Notes: generated from the sequence alone by a model not told the origin. A stretch of DNA of 64,000 nucleotides from Halieaceae bacterium (GCA_026710905.1 JAPOQD010000059.1:2021-66020), one strand, 5' to 3'. Shown: positions 23,105 to 62,980, counted from the stretch's first letter. Made by a program: numbers and translations.

Positions 23105-23133
23105 TTGACATGAGTTTAAAACACATATATCGT
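23105..23133 (+). promoter_or_regulatory. sigma70-like promoter candidate for P450 copy 2
   Basis: TTGACA (23105-23110), a 17-nt spacer, then TATCGT (23128-23133). The predicted transcription start falls on the operator at 23139. Confidence 0.4.
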
Positions 23134-23138
23134 AAAAA

Positions 23139-23152
23139 TCAACGCATGTCTA
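23139..23152 (-). promoter_or_regulatory. candidate TetR-type operator, plus-strand TCAACGCATGTCTA
   Basis: In the divergent region between the LLM oxidoreductase (start 23058) and the P450 (23178). Confidence 0.55.
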
Positions 23153-23177
23153 CTTATGATTTTATGAGGGGGATTTC

Positions 23178-30161: not shown

Positions 30162-30177
30162 GCGTGAAGTGATGAGA

Positions 30178-30855
30178 TCATCTGCCTTCATCAGGCGTCA
30201 GCAGTGAGGCTGTTATCCCCAGCAGTGCTTCGTCAACTACCCTGGTCAGTGCGGGAGCAGGTTCCCTGGCAGCTAAAGCGTTGTCTCGTTCGAGCAGGTA
30301 TCCGTAAAATGTATAAGACTCCATAGTTAGTCGCCGTATCATGCTTGTCCGAGAGAGTCGGGTTAATGGATCGAGTAATTCAAGCAGTTCATGTAACGGA
30401 TCGTCGGCAGGCGGATTTATTGACGGGTGGCGCGCGTAACCGTAAGCGGGGTGTGCCAGAAAGCACATGAGGAATCGAGCGTAACTGTGATTGCGGTCAG
30501 CATCTACCTGTTCGGCAACGGAAAGATACAATATTTCCAGCAGCGTACGCAGATTACTGAGTAAATCCCGATCCCTCGCGAGTCGCAAAAGTTGTGCCCT
30601 TCTCTTTTTCTCTGAGCGAAGACGCATGCGGAAAATTGCGTTTATGAGGCCATCGAGGTTTTTAAAATAGTATTGCACGGCAGATTTATTGGCCTGCCCG
30701 GCAGAATATGCGATTTCGTTCAGGGCCACGCCATCGACTCCCTTCCTGGCAATCATGGATTCCCCCGTAGAGATCAAAGCACGTTCGGTCGGGGATTCAG
30801 GGCCTTCGATGTCCAAAATGCTGGTCAGCTTAAGGCGCTTGACTAATCTGGGCAT
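30178..30855 (-). CDS. TetR family transcriptional regulator (third, divergent type)
   Basis: 225 aa. HTH GESMIARKGVDGVALNEIAYSAGQANKSAVQYYFKNLDGL. Not closely related to paralogs A/B. Confidence 0.85.
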   Translation of the reverse strand: MPRLVKRLKLTSILDIEGPESPTERALISTGESMIARKGVDGVALNEIAYSAGQANKSAVQYYFKNLDGLINAIFRMRLRSEKKRRAQLLRLARDRDLLSNLRTLLEILYLSVAEQVDADRNHSYARFLMCFLAHPAYGYARHPSINPPADDPLHELLELLDPLTRLSRTSMIRRLTMESYTFYGYLLERDNALAAREPAPALTRVVDEALLGITASLLTPDEGR

Positions 30856-31068
30856 TTCCCTGGATTGCTCTTTACGAATGATTGGTTACAGAGACTATCA
30901 CTGTTGCGAGACGATAGTAGTTCATTCGTGGGGGAAGGGGTAGCACATACCAAGTGAGCAGCTTGTGAGATGTTGCACGCCTCAGTGCCTGGTACTGGGT
31001 GGCCTGCCTGTCTGAACGGGGCACACACAGAGAGATGCGTAGACGATTTGCCGAGCAAGCGAAAAGGC

Positions 31069-31082
31069 TAGACAAATGATGT
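31069..31082 (+). promoter_or_regulatory. candidate operator, TAGACAAATGATGT (weaker second half)
   Basis: In the 349-nt region between the third TetR and LuxE-like 1. Confidence 0.4.
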
Positions 31083-31087
31083 TTTGA

Positions 31088-31101
31088 TATGCTAGCGTCT
31101 A
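31088..31101 (-). promoter_or_regulatory. variant operator candidate, plus-strand TATGCTAGCGTCTA (= TAGACGCTAGCATA)
   Basis: Shares the 10-mer TAGACGCTAG with the site at 48107-48120. Followed by TATAAG. Confidence 0.35.
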
Positions 31102-31204
31102 TATAAGTAAAGCTACTTAATAATAAGCACCTGCACAGCCACGTACTGATGTGACAACCTGGTGGAATACAAGGTAAAAAGTAGAAGATAGCAGGGAGGT
31201 CGAG

Positions 31205-32617
31205 GTGTCAATTCACGAAGACGCGCTGAAAATGTGCAATAACCCGAAAGAATATTTCAATAATGATGGGTATAACGCGCACCATATGCCGCTAGAGGAA
31301 CTGCACGCGATGCAGCTGGCGGGCGCTCAGGCTCGTTTCTCAGCTCTGAGAGACCAGATACCGGTACTCCAATCTGTAGCAGATAATTTAGGAATCGACA
31401 AAGTCGACAGTTTCGAAGCAATTGGTCTACTGTTGTTTCCGCATACGATGTACAAGTCGTATCCCAGCTCATTTCTCGAAAAATCACGATTTACGGACCT
31501 CACCAAATGGCTGGACCGTCTTACTGCAGTTTCGATCTCGTCTCTTCCAGTAGGCGATTGCGAGACGATTGACGAATGGCTGGATGTTCTTGACGACGAA
31601 TCACAGCTCCGCGTGTTGCACTCCTCCGGCACGTCGGGGACCATGTCATTCCTGCCGCGAACAAAGCGTGAGTACGAAACATTCTTTGGTCTGACGCGTA
31701 TGTGTCTTCTGGAGGCATTGAAGGAAGAACTGCGTCCAGGGGATAACGACTTTTTTCATGTTATTTCATTGGGGTTCAGCACAGGGCGCAGTGGAGCTCT
31801 AAGGGCGCAGCAGGCCTTTAGAGAACAGCTCGCTGGGTCGGATGACCGTTACCATCCTTTGCACGATGTTCCCATGAGTTCCGATGTCATGTATATGGCG
31901 GCGCGCCTTCGCCGAGCGGAGGCCCGCGGAGAAATCGATAGTCTAGTGGTGAATCCCAAGATACGGGCCCGGCGGCAGGAGTTCGAAGAAACGCAGCGCA
32001 GCCTTGCACAATCCATACGGCGATTGTTCGATGAGGTAATCGCGGGTCTTATCGATCAGCGTGTGTTCATGGTTGGTATGTGGTCCCAGCTTCAGGCTGT
32101 GGCCGGCGAAGGCCTGGCGCGGGGGATCACCGAAGCCTTTGCGCCGGGGAGTATCGTTCAAGGGGGTGGCGGCGCCAAGGGCGCTGTTATGGAAGACGGC
32201 TGGGAGGACGATGTCAAGCGCTTCGCGGGTGTCCAGCGATTCATGAATACCTACGGCATGTCGGAATTAATGAGTGTGAATTACCTGTGCGAAGATGATC
32301 GTTTTCATCTGCAACCCTGGATTGTGCCTATGATTCTTGACCCGGATAGCAGTAAACCACTGCCCCGCGCGGGGGTGCAGACAGGGCGAGCAGGTTTCAT
32401 GGACCTGTTGGCGCAGACCTACTGGGGGGGATTTATCTCCGGCGATGAAGTTACTATTGACTGGTTGCCCTGTCGCTGTGGGCGTACATCGCCCAACCTG
32501 AAAAATGACATACGCCGCTTTAGTGACAAGCAGGGTGGGGACGACAAGATCAATTGCGCAGCCGCTGACGAGGCACACGGCGCTGCGATCAATTTTCTTG
32601 CCTCCGATTTGGGATAA
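31205..32617 (+). CDS. LuxE-like acyl-protein synthetase / PaaK-like adenylate-forming enzyme (copy 1)
   Basis: 470 aa. GTG start with GGGAGG SD. HSSGTSGTMSF (adenylation P-loop), QGGGGAKG, YGMSELMS, HLQPWIVPMILDPDS..PLPRAG.QTGRAGFMDL and CRCGRTSP. These match the LuxE pattern as I recall it (SSGTRG, GGGWK, PPW..A.DP). Confidence 0.75.
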   Translation: MSIHEDALKMCNNPKEYFNNDGYNAHHMPLEELHAMQLAGAQARFSALRDQIPVLQSVADNLGIDKVDSFEAIGLLLFPHTMYKSYPSSFLEKSRFTDLTKWLDRLTAVSISSLPVGDCETIDEWLDVLDDESQLRVLHSSGTSGTMSFLPRTKREYETFFGLTRMCLLEALKEELRPGDNDFFHVISLGFSTGRSGALRAQQAFREQLAGSDDRYHPLHDVPMSSDVMYMAARLRRAEARGEIDSLVVNPKIRARRQEFEETQRSLAQSIRRLFDEVIAGLIDQRVFMVGMWSQLQAVAGEGLARGITEAFAPGSIVQGGGGAKGAVMEDGWEDDVKRFAGVQRFMNTYGMSELMSVNYLCEDDRFHLQPWIVPMILDPDSSKPLPRAGVQTGRAGFMDLLAQTYWGGFISGDEVTIDWLPCRCGRTSPNLKNDIRRFSDKQGGDDKINCAAADEAHGAAINFLASDLG

Positions 32618-32631
32618 ACGGAAGGGTACTG

Positions 32632-34083
32632 ATGGCAACGATTACCGGTGCGGCTTTCATTCGCGGAGAGATATACAGCGATAGTCTTGTCACTTTTGGT
32701 GGTCGAGGGGGTGATGCTTCATTTCTTGCGCCGGATCCGATGAGCCTGCTTGATCACCTACCCCTGCGTGACCCGGGTGCGCTTCGAGATCTTTATGAAC
32801 TCAAATTCGACGATATTGTTGATTATCTGGTCGAGCTGGGCGAGGGGCTTGATTTATCGAAAAACGAGTTCGTGCAGGAAGCGCTGGAGCATTCCTATTT
32901 GATGACGGATATGACGCCTCCGCTTCTCCATCGTCAGTACAGTGAATTCCGCCATATTTTCAGGAGGGAGTTCGTGCGACAGATGGCTGATGTGCCCATC
33001 GGCATACCCTTGCTTGAGGATTGGCAGGAAGTGCAGCTCAGTGATGGACGGCTGGCGTCGATTCGGGCGATGGGTGCGCGCTCACTCCACATCGTTGCGG
33101 GAAACAGTCCGTTTGTTACCGCAATCACCATTGTTCGCAATGCGATTACTCGCAGCGATGCGATCATCAAGCTACCCTCTAACGATCCATTGACAGCATT
33201 GGCGATCGCTCGAACCATGGCTGACTTCGCACCGGATCACCCGTTGACGAAGCATTTATCAGTCGCGTACTGGAAAGGCGGGACCGAAGAGTTCGAGCAG
33301 CGGCTTTATCTGCCCAGCAACCTGGAAAAGATTGTTGCCTGGGGAGGTTTCGCATCCCTGAAACATGTGACTCGATACATCCATCCGGGTTTGGAACTCA
33401 TCTCGCTGGACCCCAAGCGTAGTGCCACAGTGATCGGTCAAGAAGCATTTGCGAGCGAGGCATCGATGCGGGAGGTTGCACGCCGTGCTGCATCGGATAT
33501 GGGTTCTCTCAATCAGTTGGGCTGTACTGCCGCCAGGGTCATCTATGTGGCTTGCGGGACAGGCATTGAAGGTGTGGTAAAGCTGAACCACCTCGGAGAA
33601 ATGATCTATGAAGCATTACTGGGTCTGCCGGGGTCGATCAGCTCCAAACCGAAGCGGTTTGACCCTGAATTGCGGGATAACATCCGCGTGTTGAAATCCT
33701 TTGAAGACTACTACACGGTCATTGGCGGCGAGGAGGACGAAGGCGCCGTCATAGTCTCTCATGCAGGTGAGCCCGTCGATTTTCATACTTCGCTGGCGGG
33801 CCGTGTCGCGAACCTGGTCCCGATAGACAAGCCACTGGACGCCCTCAGGGGAATGAGTGCCTATACACAGACAATCGGTATCTATCCTGAAGCGCTGAAG
33901 AGCGAACTACGGGATATTCTGCCGTTATACGGCGCCCAGCGGATGGTTTCCCTGGGTTATGCGAACACCGGCAATTCCTCGCTACCGCAGGATGCCATCG
34001 AGCCGACGCGACGGATGTGCAAGTGGATTGTTGACGAATCCTGTGATCCGGCGCGTATCCCTGCTCCCTGGCTGGAGAATTAG
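32632..34083 (+). CDS. LuxC-like acyl-CoA/acyl-protein reductase (copy 1)
   Basis: 483 aa. HIVAGNSPFVTAITIVRNAITRSDAIIKLPSNDPLTALAIARTMADFAPDHPLTKHLSVAYWKGG...IVAWGGFASLKHV...LISLDPKRS follows the LuxC consensus closely. Candidate catalytic Cys in NQLGCTAARVIYV. Confidence 0.8.
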   Translation: MATITGAAFIRGEIYSDSLVTFGGRGGDASFLAPDPMSLLDHLPLRDPGALRDLYELKFDDIVDYLVELGEGLDLSKNEFVQEALEHSYLMTDMTPPLLHRQYSEFRHIFRREFVRQMADVPIGIPLLEDWQEVQLSDGRLASIRAMGARSLHIVAGNSPFVTAITIVRNAITRSDAIIKLPSNDPLTALAIARTMADFAPDHPLTKHLSVAYWKGGTEEFEQRLYLPSNLEKIVAWGGFASLKHVTRYIHPGLELISLDPKRSATVIGQEAFASEASMREVARRAASDMGSLNQLGCTAARVIYVACGTGIEGVVKLNHLGEMIYEALLGLPGSISSKPKRFDPELRDNIRVLKSFEDYYTVIGGEEDEGAVIVSHAGEPVDFHTSLAGRVANLVPIDKPLDALRGMSAYTQTIGIYPEALKSELRDILPLYGAQRMVSLGYANTGNSSLPQDAIEPTRRMCKWIVDESCDPARIPAPWLEN

Positions 34084-34096
34084 AGGAGGATCGGGA

Positions 34097-35788
34097 ATGG
34101 AAAGAGAGGCTCGTAAGTACACGGCGAACATCGAAGATCTGCTGGTTGTTGACGAACCGGACAAGCTTGCGTGGCATGATCGAGCGAATCTGGTCGTTAT
34201 CGGATTCGGCGGCGCGGGCGTCGTGGCCTCCCTTCAAGCCCTGGAGCAGGGTGGTAGTGTAATCGCGGTGGACAGGTTTAGCGGCGGTGGGGCTACCGAA
34301 AAGAGCGGTGGAGTAGTGTACGCGGGTGGAACGCGCCATCAGCGCGATGCTGGGTTTGATGACACGGTTGAAGAGATGTTCAAGTATCTCTCCTATGAGG
34401 GAGTACCCGTTCGCGACGAAACTTTGCGACGTTTTTGCGAGACCAGCAACGAGAACATTGAGTGGCTGGAGGGGTTTGGCGTCCGATTCGGCTCCTCATA
34501 TTTCGAGGAACGTATATCCTACCCCCCCGAAGGGTATTTTCTCTACTATTCAGGCATGGAGAAGTTTCGCGGTGACCGCGCGAAGATTGTTCCGCGTGGG
34601 CATCGCACTCTGGGTAGAGGACCAACAGGACAGAACTACTTTGCGCCCCTGAAGGACGCGGCGCTGCGCAAGGGAGTTCGGTTGATCACGCATGCTCCCG
34701 CACGTCGTCTGGTCGTTGATTCTGTGGGGCGTGTTATCGGTGTGGAGATCCAGGTGATTCCCGAGGCGCATCGCGCCAGGCACGAGTCTCTGTACCAAAA
34801 AGTGGACCCCTATAAACTCGGTAGCGGCAGGGTCGCGGAAAAGGCGATTGCAGACTGCCGCGCTTTTGAGGAGAGCGTACCGACTGAACGACGATTGTTG
34901 AGGGCTGACCGCGGCGTGGTCCTTGCTGCGGGGGGCTACAATTACAACCTGGAACTATTCGCCAAGTACCGGCCTATCATCAAGGACGTGTATGGTGATA
35001 TTACCAGGGGCGGTTCCATGGGGTGCGATGGTAGCGGAATCGAACTCGGTATCAGTGCCGGCGGCGCACTGAGCCACATGGATCGCTTCTTTGTGACGAA
35101 GCCTCTATCACCACCACCGTCCTTTGTTCAAGGCGTCCTGGTCAATGCCGAAGGGCAGCGCTACATTGCAGAAGATGCTTATCTGGGTAACATTGGTTGC
35201 GCCACATCCGAGCAGAGCGGTCTGGGAACCGCCTGGTTGATACTCGACAATCGCATTTTCTGGAAAGGATTCCGGGAACTGATCTGGCCGCTTAAGAATG
35301 CTTTTTCCTGGTACGGTTTGCCCGCCATTTTAAACATATTCCTGGGCGGAACGAAACGCGCTCGATCCATTGTTGAACTCGCCTCTCGATGTGGTATCGA
35401 GGAAAGTGGGCTGGAACGCACTCTGTCAGAATTCAATGTGTGTGCGAAACAGCGTCTCGATACCGAGCATGGCAAGATGGCAATTCACTTAACGGCCCTG
35501 GAGAATCCTCCCTACTTTGCGCTCAATATGTCCCTGCGCAATAAGTGGTGCTTCTCGGGAGCGATGCCGTTTGGTGGATTGACCGTTGAAGAAGACACAG
35601 GTGTGGTCACGAGGGCCGATGGGTCGCTTGTTGAAGGCCTGTATGCAGCTGGACGTACAGCGCTGGGAGTCTGCTCCGAAAGCAATTTCAGTGGGCTCTC
35701 GATTGCAGACACCATTTTTTCCGGGCGTCGCGCGGCGAGTGCTGCACTCTCGTCAGGCGTTGTGCAAGCAGTACCTGAAGCGATTTGA
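34097..35788 (+). CDS. FAD-dependent oxidoreductase, KstD/fumarate-reductase-flavoprotein-like (copy 2)
   Basis: GGAGGA SD, then MEREARKY.... NLVVIGFGGAGVVASLQALEQGGSVIAVDRFSGGGATEKSGGVVYAGG. Paralog of 25717-27408. The ORF track start at 33959 overlaps LuxC and is probably too long. Confidence 0.85.
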   Translation: MEREARKYTANIEDLLVVDEPDKLAWHDRANLVVIGFGGAGVVASLQALEQGGSVIAVDRFSGGGATEKSGGVVYAGGTRHQRDAGFDDTVEEMFKYLSYEGVPVRDETLRRFCETSNENIEWLEGFGVRFGSSYFEERISYPPEGYFLYYSGMEKFRGDRAKIVPRGHRTLGRGPTGQNYFAPLKDAALRKGVRLITHAPARRLVVDSVGRVIGVEIQVIPEAHRARHESLYQKVDPYKLGSGRVAEKAIADCRAFEESVPTERRLLRADRGVVLAAGGYNYNLELFAKYRPIIKDVYGDITRGGSMGCDGSGIELGISAGGALSHMDRFFVTKPLSPPPSFVQGVLVNAEGQRYIAEDAYLGNIGCATSEQSGLGTAWLILDNRIFWKGFRELIWPLKNAFSWYGLPAILNIFLGGTKRARSIVELASRCGIEESGLERTLSEFNVCAKQRLDTEHGKMAIHLTALENPPYFALNMSLRNKWCFSGAMPFGGLTVEEDTGVVTRADGSLVEGLYAAGRTALGVCSESNFSGLSIADTIFSGRRAASAALSSGVVQAVPEAI

Positions 35789-35876
35789 AGGCCTCGCTTT
35801 TCGGCTGTGTGGAGCGCCCGCCCGAAATGATGTGGGGGTGCGAAAAGACCGTCTCGCAATATACGAGTAAACAATA

Positions 35877-35890
35877 TAGACATTTGTTGA
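35877..35890 (+). promoter_or_regulatory. candidate TetR-type operator, TAGACATTTGTTGA
   Basis: Lies 123 nt upstream of the TonB-dependent receptor start. Followed by TTTATATTGT. Confidence 0.55.
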
Positions 35891-36012
35891 TTTATATTGT
35901 AAGCTGCTATTGTTTAAGCAATACTACTTAAATAGTGTGATGCAACTTCAAATAACACGAGTCTAGCCAGCTGTTGGTTGGCAGTGATCTCAAGAATCCG
36001 GGAGTAATCTTT

Positions 36013-38400
36013 ATGAGTAGCAAGTACCTCGCCTTGAAATTGGGTCCCCTCATGATCCTGCTATCAAGTCTCGCTGTTGAGTCCGTTGCCACAGAGCTGG
36101 AGGAAGTCATCGTAACAGCGCGGAAACGTGCTGAATCGCTACAGGATGCACCCCTGGCAATTACAGCTCTGAGGATGGAGGACATTGAACGCTTTGGCTA
36201 TCGCGACCTGGAATCGGTCGCCGACCAGATGCCAGAGTTGATCATCAATGTCAACGCGGCGGCGACTGCCGGCGCTATCGCCCTGAGGGGTGTGTCATCA
36301 GGGACCTTCGGCTCAGATCTTGACCAGGCTGTGTCCAGGAATATCGATGGCGTAGTAATCAGCCGGGCCGTCTCGCTGGTGTCGGGGTTTCACGACTTAC
36401 AGCAGATCGAAGTGCTTAAGGGGCCGCAGGCGCTGTTCTGGGGTAAGAACAGTCCCGGAGGCATTATCAGCTTCACCACGGCGGACCCCGGTGAAGAGTT
36501 CGAAGCCGATGTTACCCTGGGCCACGAAACGGAAATGGAGCAAGCCTATGTTAGCGGCGTGCTTTCTGGCCCCATCAGCGATAACTGGGGTGCCAGGCTA
36601 GCTGTCAAGTACCTGGACCAGGAAGGTCATATGGATAACGAGGTAGAAGGAGAAAAGTGGAATCAATTGGAAGACATTGAAGACACCTTCTTGCGCTTCA
36701 CCTTGGTGGGTGACATTACAGACAAGCTCAGTGTCCGAGCTAAGTTGGCCTACAACGAGACTGATTCCAGCGGTAACTTTGGCGCTGCTCAGAGCTATTA
36801 TTGCCCGACTGCTCCAGCACCGGGTGATCAGTGTAAGCTGGATGACGATGTGCGCTCAGTCGGCGACCCAAGGGCTGCCGGCTACGGGCCCTGGGCGGAG
36901 TTCTATGCGGATGGCCAACCTTTTCAGGATCTTGAAAATACGCTGGCGAGCGTGGAGATAAACTACGACTTTGGCAACATGACGTTGAGCGCACTCACGG
37001 GCTGGAATGAGTGGGAGAGGGGCTTCTTGTCCATTGACCCCATCAGTGAAATTCCTGGTTTTATCAGCGGGAATGGGTACAAATATGACTCGATTTCGCA
37101 GGAGATTCGCCTCTCCAGCGAGCATGAGGGTCCATTTCAGTTCATGCTGGGGGCGTTCTGGCAGCAGGTGGATAGCGACGTGGTCGGCACGGGCTACTTC
37201 CACGATCCTTTTGTGCAGTTCACCAATCCTGGCAGATTGATCGATAAATCGCAGGATACCTTGTTCTGGTGGATCGGCACACAATCCGATGTCGCTACGG
37301 ATGCCTGGTCAGTGTTTTTGCAGGGTTCGTACGATATCACCGACACGCTCAATCTAGCCGTCGGGGTGCGCTATTCAGAGGAAGAAAAGGAAGCGAACAA
37401 ATTCCACAACACCTGCTATGCGCCCATTGTGTTTGGATCGTTCGAACCGATGACGGAAGACAATTGTATTCCGTTTCCTGCCCCGGGATATCAGGAGTGG
37501 GATGGCCTCGAATATGATGCGGATAATACATCACCGGAGGTTACGCTGACCTGGCAACCCCAAGACAACGTTACCTATTACGCTTCGTACAAGGAGGGAT
37601 TCAAGTCAGGTGGATTCAACCTCACCTTTACAATTACTGAAAACCCCATTTTTGACGAGGAAACGGTGGAGGGATTTGAGGCCGGCATAAAAGCGGAATT
37701 GTTGAATCGCCGCCTGCGTGTGGATTGGGCGCTTTACAGCTATGAGTACACTGATTTACAGGTATCAGCCTGGGATCCAGTAACCTCCCAGATCGACATT
37801 TTCAATGCCGCCGAAGCAACGGTCGAGGGAACGGAACTCGCCCTGACCTATATACCGGAGGCAGTAAGTGGCCTGACGCTTACGACTCAGATTGCTTACA
37901 ACAATGCGGAATACGACGAATTTGAAACACGCTGCTATGTCGGGCAAACAATCGCGGGGGGTTGTACGATTGGCCCGGATGATATGGGTGCATTTCAGGT
38001 GCAGGACCTTTCCGGGGATAAGCTGAATTACGCGCCGGAATTCGGCGCAACGTTTGCCGCCGTTTTCGAAGCTCCGCTAGGCAACACCAGCTTGAGCTAT
38101 AACCTGTCAGCAAGCGCAAACTATACCGATGAGTACATGGCGCACGACGCGTTCAACCCACAGGCGGTGATGACTGACGCCTGGCGCTACAACGCTTCTG
38201 CCCGCCTGTACGGGGCCGATAAGCGCTGGGAACTTGCCGTGATCGGCAGAAACCTCTCCGATGAGCGGCGAGTAACCTACACGCAGGAGGTAAGAGGCAC
38301 CGGATTTGGAACCGGCACAAATGATGGATTGTCGGCCAATTTGTCGGGCTGGGGATCCATGCCGCGCCAGATCGAGTTGCAGGCCACCTATCGATTCTGA
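36013..38400 (+). CDS. TonB-dependent outer-membrane receptor
   Basis: Signal peptide MSSKYLALKLGPLMILLSSLAVES, plug domain (EEVIVTARKRAESLQDAPLAITAL), a long beta-barrel and a C-terminal ...LQATYRF ending in Phe. Confidence 0.9.
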   Translation: MSSKYLALKLGPLMILLSSLAVESVATELEEVIVTARKRAESLQDAPLAITALRMEDIERFGYRDLESVADQMPELIINVNAAATAGAIALRGVSSGTFGSDLDQAVSRNIDGVVISRAVSLVSGFHDLQQIEVLKGPQALFWGKNSPGGIISFTTADPGEEFEADVTLGHETEMEQAYVSGVLSGPISDNWGARLAVKYLDQEGHMDNEVEGEKWNQLEDIEDTFLRFTLVGDITDKLSVRAKLAYNETDSSGNFGAAQSYYCPTAPAPGDQCKLDDDVRSVGDPRAAGYGPWAEFYADGQPFQDLENTLASVEINYDFGNMTLSALTGWNEWERGFLSIDPISEIPGFISGNGYKYDSISQEIRLSSEHEGPFQFMLGAFWQQVDSDVVGTGYFHDPFVQFTNPGRLIDKSQDTLFWWIGTQSDVATDAWSVFLQGSYDITDTLNLAVGVRYSEEEKEANKFHNTCYAPIVFGSFEPMTEDNCIPFPAPGYQEWDGLEYDADNTSPEVTLTWQPQDNVTYYASYKEGFKSGGFNLTFTITENPIFDEETVEGFEAGIKAELLNRRLRVDWALYSYEYTDLQVSAWDPVTSQIDIFNAAEATVEGTELALTYIPEAVSGLTLTTQIAYNNAEYDEFETRCYVGQTIAGGCTIGPDDMGAFQVQDLSGDKLNYAPEFGATFAAVFEAPLGNTSLSYNLSASANYTDEYMAHDAFNPQAVMTDAWRYNASARLYGADKRWELAVIGRNLSDERRVTYTQEVRGTGFGTGTNDGLSANLSGWGSMPRQIELQATYRF

Positions 38401-38419
38401 CGGTGGTAGTGCAGGCAGG

Positions 38420-38445
38420 GCACGGCTGTCATTTTAAGGCCGTGC
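38420..38445 (+). terminator. possible stem-loop terminator after the receptor gene
   Basis: GCACGGC-12 nt-GCCGTGC, 20 nt after the stop codon. There is no U-tract, so this is weak. Confidence 0.3.
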
Positions 38446-38581
38446 GCTGGCGAATTTGCGCAGGTTTCCAATAAGCAGGCAACAAAGTCAGGAAATCGGA
38501 ACGTCGGTGCAGCAGGCGCGCTTTACACTTTGTATTGCCGCCTTCTGATACTTCGCAGCGCAAGGCGCCAGGATACGTTCA

Positions 38582-40012
38582 ATGACCAGTTCAGTTGATT
38601 TGCGACGGGCACGCCAATTGGCGGATGATCCGGGGGTTTTTTTCGAAGGGAATTACACAAAGATGCAATCGATCGCCTGGGAGGATCTTTCAAAATTGCA
38701 TCTTGAGGCACTGAAAATCCGTTTTGAGGAAAAACGTGATGCAATTCCCATGCTTGAAAAACTGTCGAATCAGGCAAAGGTCGATACTCTCTCCACTATC
38801 GACGATGTTGTTCCTGTTCTGTTTGATCACACCACTTACAAGTCATACCCCAATGCACTTCTCGATTCAGGCCGATTTGACCAACTGACTCGCTGGTTGG
38901 ACAAGCTCACGACGCACGACCTGTCGGATGTGGACGCTTCGCATTGTGACAATATAGACAGTTGGATGGATGCCCTTGATAAACAGACCGACCTGAAAGT
39001 TGGCCACAGTTCCGGATCCACAGGCACCATGTCTTTCCTGCCTCGAGGCGCCGAGGAGTTGGACAAGTACATCAGGAACATGAAGATAGAGCTGTTCCAG
39101 GAATTTGGCAGCGATGAGGTCGTTCAGGACGAACCGCTCAATCTTCATGTGATCTATCCGTTTTTCAGACACGGCGCAAGTTCTCATATTCGGGCTCTCG
39201 AGTTCTGGGTGAAGCACTTTGCGGGGGATGAGGAGCGTTTGCACGTGCTTTATCCCAGAAGAATGAGCTCGGATGTGATGTATCTTTCTGCACGTATTCA
39301 GGCAGCCGCTGCGCGAGGCAATCTCGACAGCGTCAAACTCAGTGACGAGATGCGGGAGAGAATGAACGAGTTTCACAAACTGCAGAAAGAACTTCCCCAG
39401 TTACTGGAGAAGTATGTGGAAAATGAACTCAAGTCCTTTGCAGGTGAGCGTGTGTTGGCCACCGGCCCTTGGACGATCAACTGGGACATGGCCAAGATCG
39501 GCCTGGAGCGGGGAATGCGTAACATGTACAGCCCCGACTCGGTAGTATTGACAGGCGGCGGTACCAAGGGGCGTGAAGTACCGGAGGACTGGCGGGAGCC
39601 TATACGCGAATTCATCGGCTCCCGCCGTATTCAAGCCATGTATGGCATGACAGAGTGTATGGGGTCACACCTGCTGTGTGAGCACGAGAAGTACCATATT
39701 GCGCCTTGGATTATTCCTTATGTACTCGATCCCGACACCTGTACCCCGCTGCCAAGAACCGGCAGAGTTACCGGTCGTGCTGCGTTCTTTGACCTGACGG
39801 CGGAGGTGCTGTGGGGGGGGTTCATCACTGGCGACGAGGTCACGATAAACTGGGCCGCAAATTGCCCCTGTGGTAGAACCAGCCCCTATTTCGATTACAA
39901 GATTCAGCGCTACAAAGACATCAAAGGGGACGACAAAATCACCTGTGCCGCCAGTGCGGAGGCCCACGAAGAGGCCCTCAGTTTCCTGAACAGTTTTGGC
40001 ACAGGACGCTAG
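38582..40012 (+). CDS. LuxE-like acyl-protein synthetase / PaaK-like adenylate-forming enzyme (copy 2)
   Basis: 476 aa. HSSGSTGTMSF, TGGGTKG, YGMTECMGS, HIAPWIIPYVLDPDT..PLPRTG and CPCGRTSP. Paralog of 31205-32617. Confidence 0.75.
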   Translation: MTSSVDLRRARQLADDPGVFFEGNYTKMQSIAWEDLSKLHLEALKIRFEEKRDAIPMLEKLSNQAKVDTLSTIDDVVPVLFDHTTYKSYPNALLDSGRFDQLTRWLDKLTTHDLSDVDASHCDNIDSWMDALDKQTDLKVGHSSGSTGTMSFLPRGAEELDKYIRNMKIELFQEFGSDEVVQDEPLNLHVIYPFFRHGASSHIRALEFWVKHFAGDEERLHVLYPRRMSSDVMYLSARIQAAAARGNLDSVKLSDEMRERMNEFHKLQKELPQLLEKYVENELKSFAGERVLATGPWTINWDMAKIGLERGMRNMYSPDSVVLTGGGTKGREVPEDWREPIREFIGSRRIQAMYGMTECMGSHLLCEHEKYHIAPWIIPYVLDPDTCTPLPRTGRVTGRAAFFDLTAEVLWGGFITGDEVTINWAANCPCGRTSPYFDYKIQRYKDIKGDDKITCAASAEAHEEALSFLNSFGTGR

Positions 40013-40022
40013 GGGTACGAGT

Positions 40023-41495
40023 ATGAATACGGCAATTGCGCCGATGGTGATCCGCGGTAAGATCATTGAAGAGAATCTCATCGAGTTTGGTGGGCGGGCC
40101 CAAGGCTTCGTCTTCCGATCGCCTGATCCGCACGCCTACGTCGAAGAAATTGGTCTGACCAGCCCCGATGCACTGGCTGACCTCTATCAGCTCAGCTTTA
40201 CCGATATACTGGATTATCTGGAGGAACTCGGACAACGGCTGGTTCTCGAAGACAACCAGCATCTGCAACAGGCGTTCGAAGCGGCCTGCGCGACGGCGGC
40301 CATGACTCCCCCGTTATTGCGTGTTCAGTACGCTTCGATTCCGGCATTCCTTGGCAATCGAAAAGCGCTCATCGAGTCCGCGGAACAATCGATTGGAATT
40401 GCACACCTGGAAGGATGGGTGGAGGGATCAACCTGCACGGGGCATGCAACGCGCATACGCGCATTTGGCGCGCGGACCGTGCACGTCATTGCGGGTAATG
40501 CACCCTTACTGTCTGCCATGACGGTGGCGCGCAATGCAATGTTGCGCAGCGATGCAATCATTAAGCCGCCCTCTAATGACCCGCTGACTGCAGCTGCCAT
40601 CGGGCGCCAGATGGTGGAAATGGCGCCTGATCATCCGCTCACCAGGCATCTTTCGGTCGCTTACTGGAAGGGTGGCGACGAGGCCTTTGAAAGCAGGCTA
40701 TACCAACCCCGGAACGTGGAGAAAATCATCGCCTGGGGTGGCTTCGCGTCTGTGAAACACGTTACCAGATATATTCAACCCGGGTTGGAACTGATCTCGC
40801 TGGATCCGAAGAGCAGCGCTAGCATAATCGGCCCAGAGGCATTCGCCAGTGAAGAGACTCTTGCTGACGTTGCCCAGAAAGTAGCCGCCGATGTGGGGCT
40901 ACATAATCAACAAGGCTGTGTCAATGCGCGCGTGGTATATGTGTTATCCGGCACGGACGAACAAGGAATCAATCAATTGGAACGGTTGGGCAGGCTGGTC
41001 TATGAAAAGATCCAACAACTCAATCCGCAATTGAGCACCGTGGCGGAGCGGTACAGCCCAGAATTGAAAGCCCACGTCGATACGCTGAAGCTCGATGATG
41101 ATTGGTATTCCGTGATCGGGGGAGAGGACAAAGAGGGGGCCATCATTGTCTCCAGGCTTCCCGCACCTGTCGATTTCTCCGCTGCCCTGTGTGATCGCAC
41201 CGCTAACCTCGTGCCCATTGACTGCCTGGACGAGGCAATTGCGTTCGTGGATGCCTACACCCAGACTGTTGGCATCTACCCGGAAGCCTTAAAGCAGGAT
41301 CTGATGGACATACTGCCGCTTCATGGAGCGCAGCGGATTGTCTCACTGGGATATGCCACCCAGATGTCAAATGCCGCACCGCACGACGGACTGGAGCCGA
41401 TGCGGCGCATGTGCAAGTGGATTTTGGAAGAAAGTGCCGACCCGAGCACGGTGCCCCCATTCTGGAGCACGGCAGGTTTCAGCGGGACTATATGA
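40023..41495 (+). CDS. LuxC-like acyl-CoA/acyl-protein reductase (copy 2)
   Basis: HVIAGNAPLLSAMTVARNAMLRSDAIIKPPSNDPLTAAAIGRQMVEMAPDHPLTRHLSVAYWKGG...IIAWGGFASVKHV...LISLDPKSS and NQQGCVNARVVYV. Start taken at MNTAIAPMVIRGK. Confidence 0.8.
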   Translation: MNTAIAPMVIRGKIIEENLIEFGGRAQGFVFRSPDPHAYVEEIGLTSPDALADLYQLSFTDILDYLEELGQRLVLEDNQHLQQAFEAACATAAMTPPLLRVQYASIPAFLGNRKALIESAEQSIGIAHLEGWVEGSTCTGHATRIRAFGARTVHVIAGNAPLLSAMTVARNAMLRSDAIIKPPSNDPLTAAAIGRQMVEMAPDHPLTRHLSVAYWKGGDEAFESRLYQPRNVEKIIAWGGFASVKHVTRYIQPGLELISLDPKSSASIIGPEAFASEETLADVAQKVAADVGLHNQQGCVNARVVYVLSGTDEQGINQLERLGRLVYEKIQQLNPQLSTVAERYSPELKAHVDTLKLDDDWYSVIGGEDKEGAIIVSRLPAPVDFSAALCDRTANLVPIDCLDEAIAFVDAYTQTVGIYPEALKQDLMDILPLHGAQRIVSLGYATQMSNAAPHDGLEPMRRMCKWILEESADPSTVPPFWSTAGFSGTI

Positions 41496-41556
41496 CGGGT
41501 TGTTTCGCTACACCGAGTGTTACTGTCATGAGAACTATCAGTAGGAAGAAAGAGAA

Positions 41557-42591
41557 GTGAAATACAAACTGTTCGGCAAGAGTGGGCTCCGGGTGTCGGA
41601 GCTATGCCTGGGGGCCATGACCTTCGGAGATGGGGAGAGCTGGTTATCAGGGCGTGAAGAGAGCTTCAGGATTCTGAGTGCCTACGCCGAAGCTGGTGGA
41701 AACTATATCGATACTGCGAATATTTACGCGCATGGGCAGAGCGAGCAGATCGTTGGCGAATTCATCAGCTCAGATAGAGAACAATTCGTCATCGCCACCA
41801 AGTATACCCATGCCTTTCCGGGAACAGCCCCGGTAAATGGTGCCGGCAATCACCGCAAAAGCATGGTATCTGCGCTGGATAGTAGTCTCAAACGCCTCAA
41901 TACAGACTATATAGATATCTACTGGTTGCATCTGTGGGATTTCTTGACCCCGGTTGATGAAGTCATGCGTGCCCTGAACGATGCAGTAGCAGCGGGCAAA
42001 ATTCACTACATTGGATTCTCTGATGTGCCGGCCTGGATAGTCGTACAGGCTAACATGGTTGCTGAACGCCATGGTTGGAACCCGATTACAGGCCTTCAGT
42101 TGGAATACAGCCTGGTCCAGCGATCCATTGAGCGCGAACTCATTCCCATGGCGCGAGCGTTTGATATCAGCGTGAATGCCTGGTCGCCATTGTCTTCGGG
42201 AGTATTATCAGGAAAGTACACCCGGGGCAAAGAGGCAGATTTCAGGCGTGGTTCGGCTGGTTTTGATATCCATACACTGAATGACGAGAAACGGCTGATA
42301 GCCGAAGCTGTTGATGAAATCGCCGACGAGATCGGAATTTCTTCTGCTGCAGTAGCGCTGAGCTGGGTGCTGTGCAAGGGAACAATACCAATATTGGGCG
42401 CTCGAACCTCTGAACAGCTTGCCGACAATTTGACATGCCTCGATTGTAAGTTGACCGAAAAGCAGATTGCGAAACTGGACGAGATAAGTGCCATTGATTT
42501 TGGGCATCCCTACGACATGCTGGACAACCCCGGTGTTATTGCAGTGACCTATGGTGGTTTTCGGGAGCAAATCGATTTTCCGGCCGGTTGA
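41557..42591 (+). CDS. aldo/keto reductase
   Basis: 344 aa with a GTG start. MKYKLFGKSGLRVSELCLGAMTFG...NYIDTANIY...IDIYWLH. Confidence 0.9.
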   Translation: MKYKLFGKSGLRVSELCLGAMTFGDGESWLSGREESFRILSAYAEAGGNYIDTANIYAHGQSEQIVGEFISSDREQFVIATKYTHAFPGTAPVNGAGNHRKSMVSALDSSLKRLNTDYIDIYWLHLWDFLTPVDEVMRALNDAVAAGKIHYIGFSDVPAWIVVQANMVAERHGWNPITGLQLEYSLVQRSIERELIPMARAFDISVNAWSPLSSGVLSGKYTRGKEADFRRGSAGFDIHTLNDEKRLIAEAVDEIADEIGISSAAVALSWVLCKGTIPILGARTSEQLADNLTCLDCKLTEKQIAKLDEISAIDFGHPYDMLDNPGVIAVTYGGFREQIDFPAG

Positions 42592-42612
42592 TCCGCGACT
42601 CCGGGAGGAGAA

Positions 42613-43821
42613 ATGGCGGTAGCCCTCGATGGCGTAAGAGTGATAGAGCTGGGGCAGGAGATCCAGGGCCCCTATGCCACCCTGTTCCTGGCCGACATGG
42701 GCGCCGATGTGATTAAGGTGGAGAATCGTGAGGGCGGCGACCTGGCCCGGCAGATGACGGTGGGTCGCATTGCTGGCGAGGAGCTGCCCCACGGGGATTT
42801 CCAGCAGTATTTTTTCCTGCTGAACCGCGGCAAACGCAGCCTCACACTGGACCTCAAGCAGGAGCAAGGCAAGGAAATCCTGCTGCGCCTGCTGGACAGC
42901 GCCGACGTGCTGCTGACCAATTTCCGCCCCGGGGTGCTCGAACGGTTGGGCTTTTCCTACGACGACTTGTGTGAGCAATTTCCACGCCTGATCCATGCCA
43001 CCGCTTCTTCCTGGGGTCCGAAAGGGCCCTGGGCGACCCGGCCCAGCCGCGACATGCTGGCCCAGGCAGCGGCAGGCATCATGACCAAGACGGGTATGGA
43101 AGATCAGCCGCCGTTGCCCGCGGGTTTCGTTGCCGGCGACTATTCTGGAGCGGTATTCGCTGCCATGGGGATTCTCGCGGCGCTCTATGCCCGAGAGCAG
43201 ACCGGCAGTGGCCAGAAAGTGGATACTTCCATGTACGGCGCCCTGCTCGCGCTGCAACCCTGGGAGCTGATCCAGGCCTCGATTACAGGCAGGTAAAATC
43301 GCCGCGCCGGCCGCGGCCACCAGTTTCTGAACGGAGCCTGGGGCGCGTTCCAGACCAGCGACGGCTGGATCGCCATCGCCGGTATTGAAGACAGCCGCTG
43401 GCCCGGGTTCTGCGAGGCAATCAACCGCCCGGATCTGGTTGACGATCCCGACTACGACAAGGACAGCCGAAATTTCGCCGGGGAGCGGATTCACCAACTG
43501 CTGGACGAGGTGCTGTTGCAGCGCACCACCGATGAGTGGCTGGAATTGTTCCTGGCAGCGGACCTGTTTGTTACCGCCGTGGCTGATTACGACGACGTGC
43601 TCAATAGCGAGCAGGCCCTGGAGAACGGCTACATACGCTGGGCTGAGCATCCAGAGGTGGGTCGTTTCAAGATGGTAGGCCCCCCCGTCACGCTCAGTGA
43701 AACCCCCTTTGCCGAGGTGAAGCCCGCCCCGGTACTGGGTGAGCACACTGATGAGGTTTTGCGGGAACTTGGTTTCGATGAGGAGGCCATTGCCAAGCTG
43801 AAACAGTCTGGCATTGTCTGA
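42613..43821 (+). pseudogene. family III CoA-transferase (CaiB/BaiF type) interrupted by one in-frame TAA
   Basis: ORFs 42613-43296 and 43510-43821 are in the same frame. The only interruption is TAA at 43294-43296, and the frame is open from 43297 onward. It reads ...ITGR*NRRAGRGHQFLNGAWGAFQTSDGWIAIAGIEDSRWPGFCEAINRPDLVDDP..., which continues the family pattern. N-terminal LDGVRVIELGQEIQGPYATLFLADMGADVIKVE. Confidence 0.8.
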
Positions 43822-43910: not shown

Positions 43911-44750
43911 TTACTCCTTCAGATAACTCTGCAGCGCCTGGCGTTGGGTTCTGGCCTGTGTATAGGGGCGCCCGGCGATGGCGCCACCGTCGATCACCAG
44001 GTCGCGCCCGGTGATGAAGCCCGCTTCATCCGAGGCCAGGAAAATCACTGCATTGGCGACGTCCTCCGGAGTACCTGCGCGGCCCAGCGGTTGGGCTTTC
44101 TTGAGGGCGCTGCGAACCTTGTCGGAGGTTGCATCCGCTGCGTCGCTATCCAGGCCGGCGCCACGGCCGAAGATACCCGTAGCGATCGCACCGGGAGAGA
44201 CGGTGTTGATGCGCACGCCGCTTTCTGCCAGTTCCAGGGCCACGCTTTTTGCGAGTTGTACCACCGCCGCCTTCAGGGCTGCATACAGGTGGCTGGTGGC
44301 GTAACCACCCAGTTGCGCAGCGACCGAGGCGTTGCTGACAATGGCGCCCGAGCCTTGCGCACACATCACGGGTGCGGCGTGCTTGATGCCGTAGAACACG
44401 CTGCGCAGCAGCAGCGCCACCGAGGCGTCGAAATCCTCCGACTCGATACCCGCGATGTCTCCCGGGGGCGCGGGCCCGCCGGCGTTGTTGAACAGGATAT
44501 CAAGTTTGCCGAATTGATCGCGCGCGCAATTCACCGCTTGCTGTACCTGGCCTTCCTCGGTGACGTCGACCTCCATGAACAGGGCGGCATCACCCAGCTG
44601 TGCCGCGATCTGTTCCCCCAGGGTTTTCCTGCGCCCGCACAGCACCACCGAGGCCCCCTCGGCGACCATTCGTTCGGCGGTACAACGGCCGATACCGCTG
44701 GTGGCCCCGGTGATAAGCGCTACCTTGCTCTGCAGGCGCTGGGTCGTCAT
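43911..44750 (-). CDS. short-chain dehydrogenase/reductase (SDR)
   Basis: 279 aa. TGATSGIG, NNAG and YAALK motifs. Confidence 0.9.
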   Translation of the reverse strand: MTTQRLQSKVALITGATSGIGRCTAERMVAEGASVVLCGRRKTLGEQIAAQLGDAALFMEVDVTEEGQVQQAVNCARDQFGKLDILFNNAGGPAPPGDIAGIESEDFDASVALLLRSVFYGIKHAAPVMCAQGSGAIVSNASVAAQLGGYATSHLYAALKAAVVQLAKSVALELAESGVRINTVSPGAIATGIFGRGAGLDSDAADATSDKVRSALKKAQPLGRAGTPEDVANAVIFLASDEAGFITGRDLVIDGGAIAGRPYTQARTQRQALQSYLKE

Positions 44751-44802
44751 TTCTGCTTCCCATCTCTTCGGCTCTCGTATAATATGTCACATATCTATAT
44801 AA

Positions 44803-44816
44803 TAGACAAACATCTA
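44803..44816 (+). promoter_or_regulatory. candidate operator, TAGACAAACATCTA
   Basis: In the divergent region between the SDR (start 44750) and the BKACE gene (44833). Preceded by TATATAA, as at other sites. Confidence 0.45.
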
Positions 44817-44832
44817 TTTGAAGGAGAATTTC

Positions 44833-52145: not shown

Positions 52146-52290
52146 GCGGTACAGTCGTCTCTCTTACCCACTTCGGCAAGGCCTCCTGGCGTTTACCCGG
52201 CTTCACCAGATCGAGCCAGTGTTGATCAGGCATTGTTCGCTTCCACGGCAAGAGTGATTGACAGTCGTCGTGATGACATATATCGTTATA

Positions 52291-52304
52291 ATAGACAATT
52301 GTCT
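52291..52304. promoter_or_regulatory. candidate TetR-type operator, perfect palindrome TAGACAATTGTCTA
   Basis: Overlaps TATAAT (52286-52291). A second adjacent site, ATACTATGTGTCTA, lies at 52304-52317. Lies 52 nt upstream of the VOC gene. Confidence 0.6.
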
Positions 52305-52355
52305 ATACTATGTGTCTATCATGCGTTACGCCAGCCCGCTAGAGGGGACCTCTGA

Positions 52356-52799: not shown

Positions 52800-52807
52800 G
52801 GTCTGCA

Positions 52808-53242: not shown

Positions 53243-53283
53243 GCAGTTGCTCTGCAGTACGTTGGCGCAGACATGTCCGCCCT

Positions 53284-54050: not shown

Positions 54051-54098
54051 GTTAGGCTGATAGCGCAGATCGCACAACACGTAATTGTGTGGTGTGTT

Positions 54099-62978: not shown

Positions 62979-62980
62979 TC

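Follow-up and report, generated by a model that had tools for sequence, protein, structure and literature searches.

A stretch of 64,000 nucleotides from a Halieaceae bacterium (GCA_026710905.1 JAPOQD010000059.1:2021-66020), referred to below as the window, carries a cassette of eight genes that encode a TetR-family regulator, two pairs of a predicted LuxE-like acyl-protein synthetase and a LuxC-like reductase, a flavoprotein, a TonB-dependent outer-membrane receptor (TBDR) and an aldo/keto reductase (AKR). The rest of the window is one large catabolic island. On balance we consider it probable that the cassette is of foreign, lower-G+C origin, that its insertion point lies exactly between the stop codon of a Baeyer-Villiger monooxygenase (BVMO) gene and the start codon of a CoA-transferase gene, and that it joins uptake to acid reduction. 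In functional terms the likely role of the cassette is to take up a bulky organic acid and to convert it by reduction to the aldehyde and the alcohol, as far as the predicted activities of its products indicate. The directly observed basis for this interpretation consists of the gene content of the cassette, its base composition, an empty site in a relative, the conserved pairing of the LuxE-like and LuxC-like genes, and the conserved residues of their products.

Extent and base composition of the cassette

The unit extends from 30162 to 42612 and covers 12.4 kb from the TetR gene to the AKR gene (Table 1). The initial annotation, which had placed the bounds at 30178 and 43821, was right as to gene content and order, with a divergent TetR gene (30178-30855, minus strand) followed by eight same-strand genes from 31205 to 43821. 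Its description of a single block stands for the genes from TetR through AKR; the last of the eight, the family III CoA-transferase gene, is host flank instead, with a G+C content at third codon positions (GC3) of 0.749 and a syntenic counterpart in the relative described in the next section. GC3 is 0.52-0.63 (mean 0.586) for the eight cassette genes versus 0.713±0.048 for the 37 other genes of the window (Mann-Whitney p=6e-5), and an eight-gene run this low arose in 3 of 100,000 permutations (P=3e-5). Three of the 37 other genes fall within the cassette range, namely one acyl-CoA ligase gene, the cholesterol-oxidase-type gene and the AbiEi gene. The outermost cassette genes, TetR and AKR, have values of 0.518 and 0.551, respectively, and the compositional switch on the right lies at the junction 42592-42612, with the CoA-transferase gene grouping with the right flank. 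The G+C content at first and second codon positions (GC1+2) is nearly equal in the cassette and in the other genes while GC3 is lower by 0.13, so the contrast sits in silent sites and not in protein composition. In 1-kb windows G+C is 0.51-0.57 within the block versus 0.59-0.65 in the immediate flanks, which bears out the lower G+C content first noted for the block, whereas the hand counts behind that statement (40-60% versus 60-75%) exaggerate the contrast. Two-group clustering by relative synonymous codon usage was discarded as a marker of the cassette, since it singled out the cassette TetR gene alone and grouped the seven remaining cassette genes with those of the rest of the window.

An empty site in a related island

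A search with the flanking pyrroloquinoline quinone (PQQ) dehydrogenase yielded a 538-kb contig of G+C 0.625, here called L166 (contigs and loci from other genomes are designated by L numbers throughout). This contig is colinear with the window flanks across 11 genes at 69-88% amino-acid identity, comprising the flavoprotein, short-chain dehydrogenase/reductase (SDR) and monooxygenase genes on the left and, on the right, the genes for the CoA-transferase, an SDR, a beta-keto-acid cleavage enzyme (BKACE), the PQQ dehydrogenase, an esterase, an acyl-CoA ligase, a major facilitator superfamily (MFS) transporter and one uncharacterised protein. L166 has 12 nt, and no block, between the stop of the monooxygenase gene and the start of the CoA-transferase gene, so that the indel covers 30162-42612 of the window, and it coincides exactly with the low-GC3 run. 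The block is thus not universally syntenic, being absent as a unit, from TetR to AKR, from this relative. The left junction of the window is reproduced in an independent sponge-metagenome contig that covers 29772-30781 with zero differences.

Other attempts to find the unoccupied arrangement were set aside. The BVMO as a metagenome query gave a top match of 56% identity without synteny, and further relatives found through the PQQ dehydrogenase (L167-L170) are rearranged around the PQQ gene and are uninformative for the junction. Four read joints in the window (27729>44477, 28664>29133, 29173>29418 and 30046>32863) were rejected as deletions, as the match on one side extends over only 21-30 letters; contigs at 23-128x depth, versus 2-4x for the window organism, are the source of the first three, and all four were treated as cross-matches to conserved motifs of other organisms.

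Relatives of the cassette

The nearest homologues of the cassette genes, at 60-75% identity, are found on the short contigs L001, L163, L164 and L002, which have a G+C content of 0.53-0.54 and a GC3 of 0.56-0.66; host-type relatives have a G+C content of 0.62-0.66. L001 and L163, which come from one sample, carry an SDR gene beside TetR-LuxE1-LuxC1, and FAD-TBDR-LuxE-LuxC (FAD denoting the flavoprotein gene, and 1 and 2 the two copies of the pair), in the order of the window and with a different left flank. Across these two contigs the TetR, LuxE1, LuxC1, flavoprotein and TBDR genes are orthologous at 60-75% identity. The pair that follows the receptor in L163 (4383-6603) is only 44% and 57% identical to that at 38582-41495 of the window and is not orthologous to it, so the second pair has been exchanged for another paralogue. 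L164 contains LuxC1-FAD-TBDR followed by a TetR_A-like gene, and the adjacency of flavoprotein and receptor is kept in L163 and L164 at 74-75% identity. In L002, LuxC2 and AKR are followed after a gap by TetR-LuxE1-LuxC1, with the LuxC2 orthologue (72%) directly preceding the AKR orthologue (72%). These differing arrangements indicate that sub-modules have been shuffled between organisms. Orthologues of the cassette TetR (59-60% identity) occupy the same divergent position in L001 and L002; the one in L002 (4375-5006) was matched in two pieces (49% and 59% identity) with fragmented gene calls, and is probably frameshifted.

LuxE/LuxC pairs are also found in loci of high G+C content. In L003 and L021 (Stellaceae metagenome-assembled genome) a pair with 53% and 67% identity is linked to homologues of window flank genes (SDR, BKACE, CoA-transferase, hydrolase, SnoaL and P450, at 47-69% identity), and the pair thus appears to be a regular companion of such islands. 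A trio of CoA-transferase, SDR and BKACE genes, present in the window at 42613-43821 and 43911-45846, recurs near LuxE/LuxC pairs in L021 (3908-7203) and L003 (15472-20728), which suggests a pathway for free beta-hydroxy and beta-keto acids beside the acid reductase.

The operator and the regulators

The sequence TAGACAnnTGTTGnTTT occurs 12 times in the window versus 0.78 expected, and palindromic variants of the form TAGAYnnnnRTCTA are also present. All of these putative operator sites are intergenic, and almost every intergenic region contains one. A matrix built only from sites outside the cassette gave 30.9 bits at 35875, upstream of the receptor, which equals the strongest sites, and 18.5 bits, a weak score, at 31067, upstream of LuxE1. 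The matrix scan found no further site in the block and none before LuxE2, in agreement with the initial annotation, in which the motif had been placed only before the receptor and weakly at 31069. A module of about 55 nt is common to the LuxE1 and receptor promoters of the window and is also found upstream of LuxE1 in L001 and L002.

The same type of operator accompanies the relatives of the cassette. Operator palindromes precede the receptor gene in L163 (1754) and L164 (2245) and LuxE1 in L002, and a degenerate copy occurs in L001; one other match was found in about 2.35 Mb of unrelated loci. In L166 the operator is present at positions orthologous to window sites, for example as AAATAGACACCTGTTGACTATAAAGAA at the SDR/monooxygenase promoter, and it occupies orthologous positions in L167 too. 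Since the operator is native in L166 and is also carried by relatives of the cassette, the cassette most likely arrived already compatible with the regulon, and the operator probably arrived with it, to judge from its distribution. The block had initially been seen as a later insertion of different origin that was afterwards partly wired into the regulon. The insertion agrees with the exact match between the GC3 run and the L166 indel; the subsequent wiring-in probably did not take place.

The operator is presumably bound by two paralogous regulators of the island, TetR_A (3618-4214) and TetR_B (13798-14388), which share 55% identity. On that assignment the resident TetR_A and TetR_B could control the cassette, whose operator promoters would have come with it. 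The cassette TetR is unrelated to both (E=0.04) and, as had been recognised at the outset, is of a different type; it scores 20.7 bits (E=3.7e-4) against TetR_N, under the gathering score of 24. The TetR proteins encoded beside the pair in Pseudomonas L078 and in L003 were considered as orthologues of the cassette TetR and found not to be orthologous. A further candidate for a shared promoter element, CTACTTAA, was too weak to claim. Many copies of the operator lie inside a module of about 34 nt (8571-8604, 14443-14476, 17577-17610, 23124-23157, 52277-52310 and 2726-2754), which ends in ...GATATATG or ...CATG and in which an ATG follows the first base of TAGACA at a distance of exactly 27-29 nt; this ATG is in several cases not the start of an annotated gene.

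The LuxE-like proteins

The two LuxE-like proteins of the cassette are 39% identical to each other. Neither matches any Pfam or NCBIfam model at threshold; with the Pfam LuxE model PF04443 the first copy reaches 16.9 bits versus a cut-off of 24.9 and the second has no match, and homologues are labelled 'hypothetical' almost throughout. The top PDB match of a profile built from 77 LuxE-like sequences is LuxE (7xc6_E, E=3.8e-5). In the alignment the catalytic Lys 238 of LuxE corresponds to Lys 325 of LuxE-like 1, within a GGGxKG motif. Lys 325 and Arg 438 are invariant in family alignments, and Cys 451 is invariant in the 77 sequences and kept by at least 90% of members at identities as low as 25%. 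At 50% clustering the family numbers about 1,330 representatives, of which 353 have E≤1e-30, and it is spread over Actinomycetota, Alpha-, Beta- and Gammaproteobacteria, and Acidobacteriota.

The AlphaFold2 model of LuxE-like 1 (pLDDT 86.7, pTM 0.87) has a well predicted body and a C-terminal tail of low confidence, with pLDDT of about 55 for residues 440-470 and below 50 for residues 449-453 around Cys 451. The N-terminal domain finds its best structural matches among PaaK-family aryl/acyl-CoA ligases (PaaK1/2, BT_0428, ClxA), with which it shares the P-loop SSGTSG and the YGMxE and CxCGR motifs. The CxCGR motif at residues 423-426 aligns with about residue 320 of PaaK, and only about 45 residues remain beyond it versus about 110 in PaaK, which means that the ANL C-terminal subdomain is missing, as in LuxE; where PaaK has that subdomain and uses CoA, the LuxE-like proteins end in a cysteine-bearing tail. 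The solved LuxE lacks the ANL C-terminal subdomain and has a short flexible C-terminal motif with the acyl-carrying cysteine (PMC9157457). The LuxE-like proteins thus combine a PaaK-like adenylation domain, with the catalytic lysine in GGGxK, and a short cysteine tail in place of the ANL C-terminal subdomain, in common with the LuxE of the luminous LuxC-LuxE complex (7XC6). They differ from it in being about 100 aa longer, through insertions in the N-domain, and in the tail sequence, which is TRxxKGCxLS in LuxE versus GDDK(I/L)xCA here. The LuxE identity proposed in the initial annotation is accordingly upheld by the lysine, the missing subdomain and the cysteine tail, and not by PF04443 or NCBIfam; the label is one of architecture and remote homology, with no match to a family model.

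The LuxC-like proteins and the conserved pair

The LuxC-like proteins (53% identical to each other) score 113.6 bits (copy 1) and 135 bits (copy 2) against PF05893, for which the cut-off is 21. LuxC-like 1 matches LuxC (7xc6_A) with E=2e-23, and the catalytic cysteine aligns at Cys 299 (Cys 296 in P. phosphoreum LuxC; numbering taken from the solved LuxC, PMC9157457). Both fall well below the bioluminescence LuxC equivalog NF052251, with 116 and 136 bits versus a cut-off of 750. Within the cassette the LuxE-like and LuxC-like genes are 10-14 nt apart, and in 73 of 79 GTDB loci the LuxC-like gene is the next gene to a LuxE-like gene; this strict pairing together with the short spacing suggests that the products form a complex. 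The 79 loci include Mycobacterium, Streptosporangium, Streptomyces, sphingomonads, Pseudomonas, Paraburkholderia and Porticoccaceae, and their commonest neighbours are SDR genes (36 loci) and P450 genes (28 loci), followed by acyl-CoA ligase and enoyl-CoA hydratase genes. An AKR gene follows the pair in the window and in L002, L024, L026 and L028, and a zinc alcohol dehydrogenase gene follows it in L003 and in Pseudomonas L078. This repeated occurrence of an aldehyde/alcohol reductase downstream makes it plausible that, as first suggested, the AKR takes an aldehyde on to the alcohol. In L078 (Pseudomonas sp. NUPR-001, 6972-15212) the pair stands in the order alkyl sulfatase (minus strand), TetR (minus strand), LuxE-like, LuxC-like and zinc alcohol dehydrogenase, followed by an insertion sequence (IS) integrase gene; this module is compact, belongs to a cultured genus and is tractable for functional work.

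The pair shares with luminous bacteria an aldehyde dehydrogenase (ALDH)-superfamily thioester reductase with a catalytic cysteine, encoded next to the synthetase. It differs from the lux system in that no luxA, luxB or luxD gene is found in the cassette, in that the pair is duplicated, and in that genes for a TBDR, a TetR regulator and catabolic enzymes stand alongside. The only luciferase-like monooxygenase gene of the window (22033-23058) scores 77 bits versus a luciferase alpha cut-off of 600. A search of the literature for LuxC/LuxE homologues in catabolic or TonB contexts returned nothing relevant. Single-polypeptide carboxylic acid reductases (CAR) consist of adenylation, carrier and reductase domains and convert a free acid to the aldehyde with ATP and NADPH. 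The net reaction proposed for the pair is the same, whereas the pair consists of two separate proteins with the cysteine tail as proposed acyl carrier and a reductase of the ALDH/LuxC type instead of the SDR type; no phosphopantetheine carrier domain was detected in a Pfam scan of the cassette proteins.

The receptor

Both TBDR domains, the plug (PF07715) and the barrel (PF00593), score above their cut-offs, and the signal peptide is followed by an EEVIVTA motif that resembles a TonB box. The closest relatives are 75% and 70% identical and lie on syntenic contigs; the next, at no more than 39% identity, come from Halieaceae, Parahaliea and sphingomonads. A TBDR gene stands directly beside a LuxE/LuxC pair in L003, L016, L043, L044, L057 and L163. 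In L044 (Sphingobium jiangsuense DSM 26189) the gene order is PQQ-TBDR-LuxE-LuxC. The comparison with a polysaccharide utilization locus (PUL) made in the initial annotation does not hold in the strict sense, as the SusC model TIGR04056 gives 32.7 bits versus a cut-off of 368.25 and no SusD-like open reading frame (ORF), the partner that marks a Bacteroidota-type PUL, was found. A parallel is offered by proteobacterial catabolic loci such as the CUT loci of Xanthomonas and that of the lignin-aromatic receptor DdvT of Sphingobium, in which an outer-membrane TBDR reportedly shares its locus and its regulation with cytoplasmic enzymes that act on a non-iron organic substrate; the partner enzymes here differ in being reductive, leading from acid to aldehyde to alcohol. 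In L167-L170 (at about 7375-9870) a TBDR gene (about 815 aa) lies directly upstream of the PQQ dehydrogenase gene, where the window has none; the L167 receptor, the sole one of the four compared, is 33% identical to that of the cassette.

The flavoprotein and the proposed pathway

The cassette flavoprotein belongs to FAD_binding_2 and scores 554 bits against NCBIfam PRK07121.1-4 (cut-off 466). It is a paralogue (58% identity) of the product of the host gene 25717-27408, and the best solved relative of both is the 3-ketosteroid delta4-(5alpha)-dehydrogenase of Rhodococcus jostii (4AT0; E=3e-46 for the cassette protein). The steroid system of that organism differs from the present one, in which neither a KshA-type Rieske enzyme nor any other canonical 9,10-seco steroid gene was recognised; in the window the matches for Rieske enzymes, P450s and the BVMO are generic or terpenoid-like. 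The substrate may, on these similarities, be an alicyclic, steroid- or terpenoid-like acid, or a lipid acid.

In the pathway that we propose, the receptor would bring a bulky, probably hydrophobic alicyclic or lipid-like carboxylic acid through the outer membrane. Each LuxE-like enzyme would adenylate the carboxylate with ATP and hold the acyl group as a thioester on the cysteine of its C-terminal tail. The LuxC-like partner, translationally coupled to the synthetase, would receive the acyl group from the tail on its catalytic cysteine and reduce it to the aldehyde with NAD(P)H. The AKR would convert the aldehyde to the alcohol, or the aldehyde would enter the oxygenases of the island, and the flavoprotein would desaturate a 3-oxo ring.

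Gene arrangement

The intergenic gaps from LuxE1 to the CoA-transferase gene measure 14, 13, 224, 181, 10, 61 and 21 nt, sizes that rest on corrected starts for the flavoprotein (34097), receptor (36013) and LuxC2 (40023) genes. There are three apparent transcription units, namely TetR facing LuxE1-LuxC1-flavoprotein, the receptor, and LuxE2-LuxC2-AKR running into the host CoA-transferase gene. A promoter and terminator scan gave no more sites than shuffled controls, and no RNA run containing the locus was found.

Table 1. Features of the cassette, its junctions and the putative operator sites (positions in the window).
Feature	Position	Strand	Remarks
Left junction spacer	30162-30177		16 nt between the stop of the host BVMO gene (30159-30161) and the TetR stop
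Cassette TetR-family regulator, 225 aa	30178-30855	-	Divergent from LuxE1
Weak putative operator	31069-31085	+	136 nt upstream of the LuxE1 start
LuxE-like acyl-protein synthetase 1 (predicted), 470 aa	31205-32617	+	PaaK/LuxE-type adenylating enzyme; C-terminal GDDKIxCAA cysteine tail
LuxC-like acyl-thioester reductase 1 (predicted), 483 aa	32632-34083	+	PF05893
FAD flavoprotein	34097-35788	+	3-ketosteroid delta4-(5alpha)-dehydrogenase / fumarate-reductase type; ORF from 33959, likely start 34097
Strong putative operator	35877-35893	+	136 nt upstream of the receptor start codon
TonB-dependent outer-membrane receptor, 795 aa	36013-38400	+	ORF from 35974, in-frame ATG at 36013; signal peptide
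LuxE-like acyl-protein synthetase 2 (predicted), 476 aa	38582-40012	+	Invariant motifs common to copy 1
LuxC-like reductase 2 (predicted)	40023-41495	+	Likely ATG start 10 nt past the LuxE2 stop; PF05893
Aldo/keto reductase, 344 aa	41557-42591	+	Final cassette gene; PF00248 at 255 bits
Right junction spacer	42592-42612		21 nt; holds the ribosome-binding site of the host CoA-transferase gene
Family III CoA-transferase	42613-43821	+	Host flank, outside the cassette
Putative operator sites	2726, 3558, 4443, 5772, 8583, 13347, 14455, 17589		TAGACAnnTGTTGnTTT or palindromic form
Putative operator sites, continued	23136, 28241, 44798, 48102, 52289		Plus cassette sites 31069 and 35877

Alternative interpretations

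Several observations weigh against the interpretation of an inserted cassette for acid uptake and reduction, and they are considered here together with the alternatives. As to origin, no repeats of 10 nt or more and no tRNA genes were found at the cassette ends, and no integrase, IS or other mobility gene lies in or adjoins the cassette. The empty site is known from one relative only, and the tetranucleotide deviation of the cassette is mild (r 0.74-0.82 versus 0.80-0.90) and smaller than that of the region at 52-58 kb, while G+C and GC3 do set the block apart from its flanks. With ends that bear no mobility signatures, a precise deletion in the L166 lineage must formally be allowed for, in which case the block would be ancestral to the island and its low GC3 would be a product of local selection or expression level; the identity of LuxC1 to its counterparts in L003 and L021, two loci of high G+C content, is 67%, close to the 61-69% of the flank genes, which would fit such a history. 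We nevertheless hold an ancestral block to be quite improbable. The deletion would have had to take out the eight low-GC3 genes and nothing else, and to leave behind a spacer of 12 nt that contains a ribosome-binding site, GC3 falls by 0.13 where GC1+2 barely move, and the nearest relatives of the cassette have the same low GC3 but other flanks. Insertion into the window lineage is thus preferred, and deletion in L166 is the less likely event.

As to function, the LuxE-like chemistry, the substrate class and the assignment of the operator to its regulators are deduced from sequence, acid-to-alcohol reduction is unusual in energetic terms for a catabolic route, and the cassette contains no inner-membrane transporter or TonB-ExbBD genes. 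The receptors found beside pairs in other genomes are only 23-32% identical to that of the cassette, which makes the association of receptor and pair suggestive and not proven, and TBDRs are abundant in those taxa, so that their adjacency to the pair is only moderately enriched. It could accordingly be argued that the receptor serves iron-siderophore or haem uptake and stands among these enzymes by chance, the more so as its top NCBIfam and PDB matches are siderophore, pesticin and colicin receptors and some databases label its relatives 'iron complex outermembrane receptor'. These matches, however, are far below cut-off (97 bits versus 223.5 for the siderophore model TIGR01783, with all NCBIfam siderophore, haem and B12 models far under theirs), and those in the PDB are limited to the generic plug. 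No Fur box precedes the receptor gene, the best match being 11/19, the same as background, and no N-terminal signalling-domain extension was seen between the signal peptide and the TonB box. The scanned ORFs of the window include no siderophore or iron genes, as had been noted initially; the operator upstream is that of the catabolic island; and the order FAD-TBDR-LuxE is kept in relatives. An iron receptor is for these reasons very improbable indeed, and the earlier proposal of uptake coupled to acid activation and reduction, and not to iron, is plausible. A less distant alternative, still unlikely in our judgement, is that the LuxE-like proteins are ordinary PaaK-type acyl-CoA ligases and the LuxC-like proteins acyl-CoA reductases, with the same net reaction proceeding through a free CoA thioester. 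Foldseek places PaaK1, PaaK2, BT_0428 and other CoA ligases first (E about 1e-12) with LuxE outside the top 50, the Pfam LuxE score is sub-threshold, and LuxC can reduce acyl-CoA in vitro (bioRxiv 10.1101/2025.08.11.669332); but the subdomain with which PaaK carries out thioesterification is absent from the C-terminus, where, as in LuxE, a short tail bearing a near-invariant cysteine stands instead, and the strict pairing at 10-14 nt points to a complex. Somewhat less likely again is an anabolic or storage role, in which imported or free fatty acids and not a catabolic substrate would be turned into fatty aldehydes and alcohols for wax esters, ether lipids or signals. Canonical LuxCE does yield fatty aldehyde (PMC12041015), the trio of genes leading from acid through aldehyde to alcohol is recurrent, and an alkyl sulfatase gene adjoins the Pseudomonas L078 module. 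Yet the scanned ORFs of the window include no wax-ester synthase and no lipid-biosynthesis gene, the neighbours commonest across the 79 loci are SDR and P450 genes and then those for acyl-CoA ligases and enoyl-CoA hydratases, and the cassette stands in a repressor-controlled catabolic island together with a steroid-type ring dehydrogenase.

The surrounding island

The host is a sponge-associated gammaproteobacterium, and the flanks of the cassette are a conserved, TetR-operator-controlled catabolic island. DNA of the window was found in seven sponge-metagenome runs, at a depth of 2-4x in the four runs examined. The oxygenases of the island comprise two P450s, two Rieske alpha subunits, the BVMO and the luciferase-like monooxygenase; further products are a second flavoprotein of the cassette type, many SDRs, two acyl-CoA ligases, a cholesterol-oxidase-type enzyme, three alpha/beta-hydrolases (two of the Abhydrolase_3 esterase type), the PQQ dehydrogenase, the BKACE, the MFS transporter, and regulators of the TetR, AraC and LysR types.

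The CoA-transferase gene downstream of the cassette, 85% identical to its syntenic L166 counterpart, is split into two ORFs by a single in-frame TAA at 43294-43296; the two parts cover CoA_transf_3 positions 1-214 and 289-366. At the position of the stop (residue 228) the orthologues in L166 and L021 have Glu, and in three sponge runs the only contigs over 43294 read G (GAA), together with a synonymous A>C change at 43291. The TAA is either a variant of the assembled strain or an assembly error, and the enzyme is probably functional in the population, judging from these reads and orthologues.

The region 52000-58000 has the most deviant tetranucleotide signature of the window (r 0.61-0.65) and contains the cholesterol-oxidase-type gene (54390-56297), the GC3 of which is low (0.59); this region may be a second foreign segment. 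Two conserved ORFs, 11322-12500 (392 aa) and 52499-53230 (243 aa), have no Pfam match, and homologues of the latter are found with the same neighbours in L166 (69% identity) and L021 (35%). The right end of the island (61337-63219) looks broken, with a FAD_binding_2 gene (61337-61858) that is truncated at about 173 aa, then a gene (62175-62978) for an AbiEi-type antitoxin/regulator, and a short ORF (62950-63219) that, judged by eye only, resembles a transposase C-terminus.

Significance

The chief interest of the locus is the unannotated LuxE-like family, the synthetase half of the pair being currently invisible to Pfam and NCBIfam. We put forward tentatively, and with appreciable doubt, that the LuxE-like and LuxC-like proteins may constitute a widespread, undescribed two-protein class of carboxylic acid reductase (about 350-1,300 clusters at 50% identity), in which a cysteine on the synthetase tail would serve as acyl carrier in place of CoA or phosphopantetheine. 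Such a class would be used catabolically on imported acids that are hard to oxidise, and would travel between the catabolic islands of marine and sponge bacteria as plug-in cassettes, here with a receptor and operator promoters. If this is true, biocatalysis would gain enzymes that need neither CoA nor a carrier, as an alternative to the single-polypeptide carboxylic acid reductases. The locus itself would represent a clean, datable insertion of a cassette into an operon, pre-equipped with the operator of the host regulon, and with regard to the sponge symbiosis it suggests that a lipid, steroid or terpenoid acid derived from the host or the community is taken up. For the family as a whole, LuxCE-type acid reduction would then be a general, modular route from free acid to aldehyde or alcohol in catabolic clusters, and not a peculiarity of bioluminescence.

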